Assembly (NCBI GenBank): GCA_000004985.1
Contig: GG738883.1
Direction: 5' to 3' (one strand)
Source: Naegleria gruberi
Lineage: Eukaryota
Length of the DNA: 64,000 nt
Made by a program: the position numbers and the translations under genes
Part shown: positions 11,757 through 12,997 of the stretch, piece by piece
How the letters are laid out: each line of letters starts with the position of its first letter
Position numbering within the stretch: position 1 is the stretch's first letter
The notes under the pieces: generated by a model
What the model was told of the DNA's origin: nothing
Seen by the model: only the letters and a program-made list of their open reading frames with translations
The model's database searches: none

Positions 11757-12997
11757 TTAATTCTTAGCATTCAACATTTTGATTGCTTCATTGAAATATT
11801 CTGGAGTTTCAGATGTAAATTCCAAATATTTTCCAGTTTTTGGATGTTTAAAACCCAAATATGAAGCATGCAAGAATTGTCCCTTCTCAGTTGCAAACTT
11901 TTCAAATCCTTCCTCTTGTTTGGATTGCTTTTTTTTCTTAGTCTTTTTACTAGCTTTGAATCGAGGGTTATAGAGGGCATCTCCTACAAGTGGTCTATTA
12001 AGGTGGGCCATTGATACTCTAATTTGGTGAGTTCCTTTGAAATAATTGTTAATTAAACATTTCTCAAATACTTACTTCCAGTTAAAAGTTTACATCTCAC
12101 AAGTGTTAAAACTTTACAACCAGTTAAATTATTGACTGGGAAGGTTTTTTGCTCCTTATATTCAGTAATACTGAGTTTGGCACCAGTTTCTAGTGCATTG
12201 TTAGTTACCTCTCTCTTGGATGGCATGGAGTGATGTCTCTTTATGTAAATTTCAATTCTTCCTTCTGATTGGTTCAATTCATTTTCTACAAGGGCTTGGT
12301 AGTATCTGGTTATTTTATCTTCATTATTTTCATCTCCTACATTCTTATTTTCGAATAATTTCTTCAATGCCAAATGAGTTTCATCATCTTTGGCAACAAC
12401 CATAATTCCACTAGTGTCTCTATCCAATCTGTGAACAATACCAGGTCTGTAATGTTCTTCACAGCTTCCACAAGTAGATAATTTTCCATTTGTGTGGAAT
12501 AAGAGAGCATTCACCAAAGTTCCAGTAGTATTTCTTGGTTTTGGTTTTAAAGAAGGATGCACTGTCATGAATTTAGGCTTATCCAAAACAATGAGAAAAT
12601 CATCTTCAAACAGAATGTTGAGAGGAATGTTTTCTGGCATGATTGCATCACTTGTAGTTGATGAGGAAGCAGCATTTTCCTCTGTAGTATTACTGGCTAC
12701 TGATAATTGTTCAGAACTTGATGATTCCGAAGAGGCTGTTGTTGTCTTTTCCTTTCTTTCCTTCACAATAACCACATCACCATGTCGTAATTTGAGAGCA
12801 GGCTTATTAGTCTCCTCATCATTATATAAAAATCTGTACTTTGAATTTTCTCCATTTGAATATTGAATTGTCTTTCCGAGTGATGATTTTGAAACTTGTC
12901 TCTCCTTGAAGAAACAATCAAATAGAAAGACATCGAGTCTTTCCTTGTGGTAATCAACAGAAACAGTCAAACTTGCAATCTGCTCAAAAGAAGACAT
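11757..12997 (-). CDS. RluA-family RNA pseudouridine synthase (about 399 aa), two exons: 12076..12997 and 11757..12034, separated by a 41-nt intron at 12035..12075
   Basis: The catalytic motif is HRLDRDTSGIMVVAK. Removing GTAAGTATTTGAGAAATGTTTAATTAACAATTATTTCAAAG joins the two ORF-track ORFs in frame. This recreates the family-conserved block [26 protein letters not shown]. The unspliced reading instead terminates at ...LTGSKYLRNV*. Confidence 0.8.
12035..12075 (-). other. 41-nt spliceosomal intron (GTAAGT...CAAAG)
   Basis: See the RluA gene: the splice restores a conserved motif and the frame. Confidence 0.7.

Follow-up and report, generated by a model that had tools for sequence, protein, structure and literature searches.

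Introns of about 40 nucleotides in genes of Naegleria gruberi: homology evidence, a truncated RluA-family gene model and a putative tandem mini-intron array

Introduction

Very short introns have been described in several eukaryotes: those of Paramecium measure about 25 nucleotides (nt) and those of the Bigelowiella nucleomorph 18–21 nt. Stentor (Stentor coeruleus) introns are 15–16 nt long (PMC9505925), and one Giardia intron has 35 nt (PMC1201135). In this work we analyzed introns of 40–41 nt in three protein-coding genes, for an RluA-family pseudouridine synthase, an RNase III-like protein and an ABHD17-like alpha/beta hydrolase, all located in a 64-kb stretch of Naegleria gruberi DNA (contig GG738883.1), referred to below as the window. 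In the initial annotation of the window this length was regarded as approaching the smallest size possible for a spliceosomal intron. That view was not supported, since the Stentor introns, and also the Giardia one, are shorter; about 40 nt is not near the limit.

With the tiny-intron eukaryotes (Stentor, Giardia) the Naegleria introns share a narrow length class near a species-specific minimum and lengths which avoid in-frame read-through. They differ in being two to three times longer and in that their extended 5′ consensus is strong and a candidate branch motif can be made out; moreover, unlike in those organisms, the Naegleria genome contains many longer introns too, the mean intron length being 203 bp in N. 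gruberi versus 126–144 bp in N. fowleri (PMC8296547). The annotated short introns of N. gruberi NEG-M (41, 41, 43 and 44 nt) come from the same genome, fall into the same size class and have the same GTRNGT...(A/T)TAG ends, whereas the RluA intron is absent from that annotation and the RNase III intron is annotated there with a different acceptor (31 nt). The orthologous introns of N. lovaniensis, N. fowleri and Willaertia magna share the codon, the phase and GTAAGT-type donors with the introns of N. gruberi but are longer in these other Heterolobosea (44–78 nt versus 41 nt).

The segments under study are very probably ordinary U2-type (GT-AG) spliceosomal introns of nuclear coding genes, belonging to the class of about 38–44 nt which dominates the window. 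The claim of the initial annotation that they are functional spliceosomal introns agrees, at the level of sequence, with homology, with splice consensus and, except for the RNase III gene, with positional conservation. Of the four introns (one each in the RluA and RNase III genes, two in the ABHD17-like gene), the public annotation already contains two and gives a third in a different form; the fourth mends a public model that is truncated.

Results and Discussion

The RluA-Family Gene and Its 41-nt Intron

The RluA-family gene has the following structure:

12076..12997, minus strand, RluA-family pseudouridine synthase exon 1, ATG at 12997
12035..12075, minus strand, RluA intron of 41 nt, phase 1, GTAAGT...TTAAC...AAAG
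11757..12034, minus strand, RluA exon 2, from RTHQIRV... to the stop codon TAA at 11759..11757

The minus-strand sequence 12075..12035 is GTAAGTATTTGAGAAATGTTTAATTAACAATTATTTCAAAG (41 nt), and the unspliced open reading frame (ORF) hits a stop seven codons inside it. Without this segment ...KLLTG is fused to RTHQIRV... in phase 1, which gives a product of 399 amino acids (aa) ending at 11757; exon 2 supplies the final two bases of the Arg codon that the intron splits, and 92 codons after it. The HRLD catalytic-Asp motif (HRLDRDTSG) lies in exon 1, and the GRTHQIR motif runs across the junction (G/RTHQIRV, the slash marking the exon border). After splicing, the score for PF00849 (PseudoU_synth_2) rose from 70.1 to 91.8 bits, a gain of 21.7 bits, and the profile coverage was extended from 2–143 to 2–152 of 152, the full length being reached only by the spliced product. 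With these features the spliced product is a predicted enzyme, an RluA-family pseudouridine synthase.

Comparisons with homologues supported the same junction. The spliced product was 69% identical to an N. lovaniensis protein at 99% coverage and was colinear through the junction with bacterial RluA-family proteins. When the 177 GT..AG pairs near the site were scored against the N. lovaniensis orthologue, the 41-nt pair came out on top (1393), followed by the runner-up with 1348, and the unspliced sequence scored 1019. Orthologues carry an intron at the identical codon and in the identical phase, of 78 nt in N. lovaniensis, 62 nt in a Naegleria contig from ENA and 52 nt in W. magna. In the four taxa the exon flanks are conserved (GGAA/GTAAGT...AG/GAACTCA, slashes at the exon borders) and the intron interiors are unrelated. 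The 41-nt segment is very probably a real, old intron, and the Pfam gain, the ranking of the GT..AG pairs and the position shared by four taxa support the earlier proposal that its removal recreates TGRTHQIRV.

The public protein XP_002674658.1 / EFC41914.1 (NAEGRDRAFT_70332) is exactly the unspliced 314-aa ORF, ending in ...KLLTGSKYLRNV; exon 1 makes up the whole of this model except for its 7-codon read-through, and exon 2 is not in the public protein. No exact match to the spliced 399-aa product was found in the protein collection. Hence, the public RluA model is truncated. On another Naegleria contig, an ORF called in the prokaryotic manner ends RluA prematurely at the same place. The corrected NAEGRDRAFT_70332 (XP_002674658.1 / D2VN10) is a 399-aa predicted RluA-family pseudouridine synthase instead of a 314-aa protein; the shorter model is devoid of the conserved C-terminal third, which is relevant to comparative RNA-modification work on the N. 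gruberi proteome.

The annotated W. magna RluA model (GCA_041937235.1, 341 aa) excises a second 49-nt "intron" (4052–4100), which takes out conserved coding sequence, and the model finishes in the wrong frame. It looks mis-spliced, the continuous frame being colinear with the Naegleria proteins.

Two 41-nt Introns in the ABHD17-Like Gene

The hydrolase gene consists of three exons separated by two introns of the same length:

44389..44770, minus strand, ABHD17-like alpha/beta hydrolase exon 1, ATG at 44770
44348..44388, minus strand, ABHD intron 1 of 41 nt, phase 1, GTGAGT...TTAAT...ATAG
44129..44347, minus strand, ABHD exon 2, with the GRSIGSG nucleophile motif
44088..44128, minus strand, ABHD intron 2 of 41 nt, phase 1, GTACGT...CACTAAC...ATAG
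43744..44087, minus strand, ABHD exon 3, with D232 and H269, stop codon TAA at 43746..43744

Intron 2 (minus-strand sequence 44128..44088, GTACGTAATTTAATATTTTAATATTTCACTAACTTACATAG, 41 nt) had been pointed out before; it proved to be the best-scoring pair against the orthologues and is present in XP_002674665.1. The second 41-nt intron of this gene, at 44388..44348, was absent from the initial annotation. The spliced 314-aa product is exactly XP_002674665.1 (NAEGRDRAFT_70349); therefore, both 41-nt introns are already in the public annotation. Each of them scored highest among the GT-AG pairs, against the N. fowleri as well as the W. magna orthologue. The product shares 68% identity with its W. 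magna orthologue, and both junctions were gap-free in the alignment.

The N. fowleri gene has introns at both positions, of 68 nt (intron 1) and 66 nt (intron 2). In W. magna a 44-nt intron occupies the intron-1 position and the intron-2 site is continuous exon; two other introns, of 47 and 41 nt, are present in the W. magna gene. The alignment showed no variation in the GRSIGSG motif (GxSxG), at D232 or at H269, the last two residues being encoded by exon 3. Homologues carry PF12146 (Hydrolase_4), and several bear the name abhydrolase domain-containing protein 17, so that the gene is predicted to code for an ABHD17-like protein of the Hydrolase_4 type, with the PF12146 match read in the homologues.

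The RNase III-Like Gene: 31-nt or 40-nt Intron

The third gene is encoded on the opposite strand:

41253..42060, plus strand, exon 1 of the RNase III-like gene, a gene for two RNase III domains and a double-stranded RNA (dsRNA)-binding domain
42061..42100, plus strand, RNase III intron, phase 1, donor GTAAGT at 42061
42101..43713 (start at 42092 with the 31-nt intron), plus strand, RNase III exon 2, stop codon TAG at 43711..43713

In the product, PF14622 was found at residues 363–485 and PF00636 at residues 590–678, and the dsrm match was weak (18 bits, below the cutoff); on this basis it is predicted to combine two RNase III domains with a dsRNA-binding motif. The reading frame changes at 42061, exactly at the GTAAGT donor. 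In N. fowleri the orthologous gene has no intron and consists of one ORF of 746 aa, colinear with residues 64 to 807 of the N. gruberi protein. An intron is therefore required, and the two N. gruberi ORFs belong to one gene. Among the compared sequences this intron was specific to N. gruberi, and its position is thus not conserved. The part of the earlier proposal which placed a necessary GT...AG intron at 42061..42100 (plus-strand sequence GTAAGTATTTTACGCACAATTTTACCAATAGTTTCACCAG, 40 nt) holds in this respect, while its length of 40 nt is not settled: two acceptors are in frame, AG at 42099-42100, chosen in the initial annotation, and AG at 42090-42091, used in the public protein.

The intron may equally well be 31 nt long (42061..42091), spliced at the first AG past the branch region, which adds the residues VSP; we consider the chances of the two lengths about even. 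The spliced product is identical (100% identity, 100% length) to the NCBI entry "predicted protein [Naegleria gruberi]"; the public protein has the 31-nt intron and reads ...EYSILVSPVGHY..., and the 40-nt product had no exact match in the protein collection. In the other well-supported N. gruberi introns of the window the acceptor is always the earliest AG located 22 nt or more from the donor. The 31-nt version ends with ATAG and the 40-nt version with CCAG, and ATAG or TTAG ends were seen in 10 out of 10 units of the arrays described below and in all but one of the six other supported N. gruberi introns (the exception, RluA, has AAAG). The additional 9 nt, TTTCACCAG, have 44% GC and are exon-like, and the "SP" of the 31-nt product is matched by the N. 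fowleri sequence TSPKDHF in the alignment. In a study of N. fowleri, the minimum for intron length was put at 30 bp after predicted genes had been assessed (PMC8296547).

On the other side, 31 nt is 7 nt below any other candidate intron of the window (38–44 nt class), and 40 nt falls inside this class. The CCAAT branch-like motif is situated 3 nt from the first AG and 12 nt from the second, and the alternative branch motif TTTAC is only 24 nt from the donor, compared with 27–33 nt in the other introns. The alignments of both variants with N. fowleri (939 versus 933) were taken as equal; the region is too poorly conserved for the orthologue to separate 31 from 40 nt.

Splicing Signals and Alternative Explanations

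All four introns begin with GT and end with AG. The donors are GTRAGT-like: GTAAGT in RluA and RNase III, GTGAGT and GTACGT in ABHD introns 1 and 2, respectively. Candidate branch motifs, which are matches in AT-rich sequence, were TTAAC at −14 (RluA) and TTAAT at −10 and CACTAAC at −9 (ABHD); in RNase III the candidate is ambiguous, CCAAT or TTTAC. From these signals and general knowledge of splicing, the 5′ ends GTAAGT/GTGAGT/GTACGT would pair with U1 small nuclear RNA, and the YTAAY-like sequence (TTAAC, TTAAT, CACTAAC) 9–14 nt upstream of the (A/T)(A/T)AG acceptor would serve as the branch site. Given the shortness of the introns, their ends are probably recognised across the intron.

The restored frames are colinear with homologues that have no intron at the site: bacterial RluA proteins, W. 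magna for ABHD intron 2 and N. fowleri for RNase III. In three of four cases the best-scoring GT-AG pair was the proposed intron. Position and phase were kept and the interior diverged in four taxa for RluA, in three for ABHD intron 1 and in two for ABHD intron 2. By this distribution the RluA intron and both ABHD introns are old, being shared with other Naegleria and, in the case of RluA and ABHD intron 1, also with Willaertia.

Several observations weigh against the interpretation of the segments as spliceosomal introns. As a chance test, any stretch of 38–44 nt, with any boundary dinucleotides, was deleted at the 68 long-ORF ends of the window; 19 of these ends could be extended by at least 70 codons, and GT-AG boundaries were not enriched. 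Frame restoration alone was for this reason dropped as evidence, and the weight rests on homology, splice consensus and positional conservation. Splicing is, moreover, inferred from sequence and not observed, the branch sites are motif matches only, and for the 3′ splice site in RNase III there are two possible choices (31 versus 40 nt).

Real introns might be retained often, yielding regulated truncated proteins or targets of nonsense-mediated decay, with the truncated RluA as a meaningful isoform. Retained introns have been described in transcriptomes of N. gruberi, and in nearly all surveyed eukaryotes retention is the prevailing mode of alternative splicing (PMC6142364). The intron lengths are all non-multiples of three, and retention therefore gives a premature stop, within 2–13 codons in RluA and ABHD and after 35 codons in RNase III. 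Against regulated retention, the donors have a strong consensus (GTAAGT), the truncated proteins would be deprived of conserved parts and no sign of regulation was seen in this analysis, so we regard it as unlikely. An N. gruberi RNA-sequencing (RNA-seq) dataset (PRJEB23822; PMC6142364) and a re-annotation of the genome based on RNA-seq (PMC12695648) are available.

Much less plausible are pseudogenes, frameshifts or assembly errors, with unspliced mRNAs and an RluA protein that truly ends at the in-frame stop. The public N. gruberi RluA model, an unspliced ORF, fits such an explanation, but the 92 downstream codons are open, 60–70% identical to the orthologues and contain residues conserved to bacteria; the segment has consensus splice ends, this codon is interrupted by an intron in four taxa, and the ABHD product would lose its invariant Asp and His. 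Nothing specific favours restoration of the frame by U12-type splicing, by programmed ribosomal frameshifting or by translational bypass, which is hardly credible, as U12-type introns were defined by the 5′ end (A/G)TATCCTT and a TCCTTAAC branch site and none of the examined intron 5′ ends (GTAAGT/GTGAGT/GTACGT) matched the former, while in-frame stops inside the RluA and ABHD segments and same-codon orthologous introns of 41–78 nt speak for splicing rather than recoding.

Intron Sizes in the Window and in Relatives

Other introns of the window were used as the context for intron size, which is drawn from this window only:

60913..60956, plus strand, NAEGRDRAFT_80606 intron, 44 nt; the spliced product is XP_002674595.1
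61080..61122, plus strand, second listed NAEGRDRAFT_80606 intron, 43 nt; the spliced product is XP_002674595.1
4787..4858, minus strand, first intron of an mTOR-like gene, 72 nt, GTATGT..ATAG

The junction of the mTOR-like gene was colinear with an intronless W. magna sequence. The tight size distribution in the window, where 41–44 nt is common, has its lower edge at about 40 nt, and this length is ordinary there. The GC content of introns was 0.20–0.33, versus 0.32–0.35 in exons.

The N. gruberi intron was the shortest in all three cross-species comparisons (RluA, ABHD 1 and ABHD 2). At the RluA and both ABHD sites, 41 nt in N. gruberi corresponds to 62–78 nt in other Naegleria. The published mean intron lengths given above rank the Naegleria species in the opposite order to the comparison of orthologous sites. 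Evidently, the mean hides the mode: the 203-bp value masks a dominant class of about 41–44 nt, at least within this window. No published histogram of N. gruberi intron lengths was found in a literature search which did not cover the 2010 genome paper.

It had been proposed that gene finders trained on larger introns split or truncate such genes. This is correct in so far as an ORF-only or mis-chosen model cuts RluA short, but no general failure was seen, only one of the three genes being truncated in the reference. The 2010 reference annotation contains both 41-nt ABHD introns, the 43- and 44-nt introns of XP_002674595.1 and the 31-nt RNase III intron; introns as short as these are known in N. 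gruberi, and most are annotated already. Annotation and read mapping in Heterolobosea must permit introns of 40 nt and below.

Tandem Intron-Like Arrays in an Ankyrin-Kinase Gene

Schistosoma has micro-exon genes, and introns born from tandem arrays are also known. A gene of the window, for a protein with ankyrin repeats, a coiled coil and a kinase domain (ATG at 33120, ORF to 36289, plus strand), is interrupted at 33315..33490 and 33578..33847 by two arrays of intron-like units:

33315..33490, plus strand, array A, four units of 44, 42, 38 and 43 nt, GTAAGT..TTAG, with spacers AAT, AGA and GAT
33578..33847, plus strand, array B, six units of 42, 43, 44, 42, 41 and 43 nt, with spacers GAT, TAT, AGA, GAT and TAT

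The units run from GTAAG(T/C) to TAG over 38–44 nt, neighbours are always exactly 3 nt apart, and the period assigned by Tandem Repeats Finder was 46–47 nt. Eight copies of the motif AG-NNN-GTAAG lie in the arrays, and the rest of the window has two, both strands taken together. The frame is kept both when whole arrays are removed and when units are removed one by one; after the latter, micro-exons of one codon each would remain and add NRD and DYRDY to inter-repeat ankyrin loops. The units are 86% identical and recent duplicates, and on that account their intact internal splice sites prove nothing.

The Pfam scores of the possible products were compared with those of random insertions of the same length:

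Micro-exon residues kept: Ank_2 118.4, Ank 82.0, Ank_4 73.7, Ank_5 68.6
Whole arrays removed: Ank_2 107.5, Ank 75.5, Ank_4 50.1, Ank_5 57.9
Best of eight random same-length insertions: Ank_2 112.1, Ank 79.3, Ank_4 57.9, Ank_5 62.0

The best solved ankyrin protein gave 255 bits with the micro-exon product versus 225 bits with the arrays removed, and fewer gaps were needed with the micro-exons. At the second junction the alignment was gap-free (dvnltdyrdysply with dinardedgstplh). The inter-repeat linkers have 5 and 7 residues with the micro-exons and 2 and 2 with the arrays removed; an exon-encoded linker elsewhere in the protein has 7 residues. These comparisons mildly favour inclusion of the single-codon micro-exons in the product, which we still consider somewhat less likely than not. 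It is likewise conceivable, though somewhat short of probable, that the minimal-intron class, sharply bounded at about 38–44 nt, can multiply in tandem together with one exon codon.

Exact look-ups of five splice variants of the gene returned none in the protein collection. The array junction motif gave five chance matches and nothing related in a metagenome scan, and an orthologue was not found in the N. fowleri region around the RNase III gene during the synteny check. If the micro-exon structure is true, the gene has ten consecutive introns of about 42 nt and eight single-codon micro-exons (NRD, DYRDY), and would be a live case of intron gain and loop lengthening via tandem duplication of an [intron + codon] unit. 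Like Schistosoma micro-exon genes and tandem-array introns, it would have runs of tiny frame-preserving exons and repeats supplying the splice sites; unlike in those cases, each putative exon has one codon only, the introns measure about 42 nt, the intron itself is repeated, and the structure is sequence-based. The tandem mini-intron array is a more interesting lead than the introns flagged at the outset.

A PARP catalytic-domain ORF (36286..37113) continues the coiled-coil-like sequence past the end of the kinase ORF at 36289, in another frame. No GT for an intron was present in the overlap of the two ORFs (36230..36340, plus strand). The break may be a frameshift or an assembly error in an A-rich run, or the two may be abutting genes.

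Other Features of the Window

The window is AT-rich and gene-dense and uses the standard genetic code. Its GC content is about 32%, and 33% has been published for N. gruberi (PMC8296547). Exact look-ups identified eight further products encoded in the window as N. gruberi NEG-M entries (EFC418xx/EFC419xx). By these matches, that of the RNase III product and the GC content, the window is nuclear DNA of N. gruberi.

Further introns were sought by ORF-joining scans of the window. Three candidates were rejected: 3943..4008, which is antisense to the mTOR gene; 9232..9318, which has no upstream start codon; and 24212..24258, which joins low-quality ORFs. XP_002674592.1 is exactly ORF 49355..50773, and a 48-nt segment at 50773..50820 (plus strand, GTAGGT..ACAG; or 57 nt, in frame) is a candidate for joining it to ORF 50804..51964 into a protein of 853 aa; homology gave no evidence either way for this join. 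A candidate intron of 53 nt (6272..6324, GTAAGT..ATAG) joins two ORF pieces at 6105..6682 (plus strand), where the open stretch covers no more than about 175 codons and lacks an upstream start; it may represent part of a gene or a gene with several exons. Another candidate, of 44 nt (51956..51999), has a weak donor. Three overlapping ORFs of 147–180 aa lie in three frames at 37584..38831 (minus strand), with no consensus short intron joining them.

Four RNA genes are located between protein-coding genes:

5653..5724, plus strand, tRNA-Pro(TGG)
5830..5901, minus strand, tRNA-Met(CAT)
17366..17436, plus strand, tRNA-Asp(GTC)
8933..9051, plus strand, 5S rRNA gene, full-length, 100 bits

A 72-nt tandem repeat at 7457..7717 (3.6 copies, 94% matches, indel-free) lies in frame within the minus-strand ORF 7439..7927.

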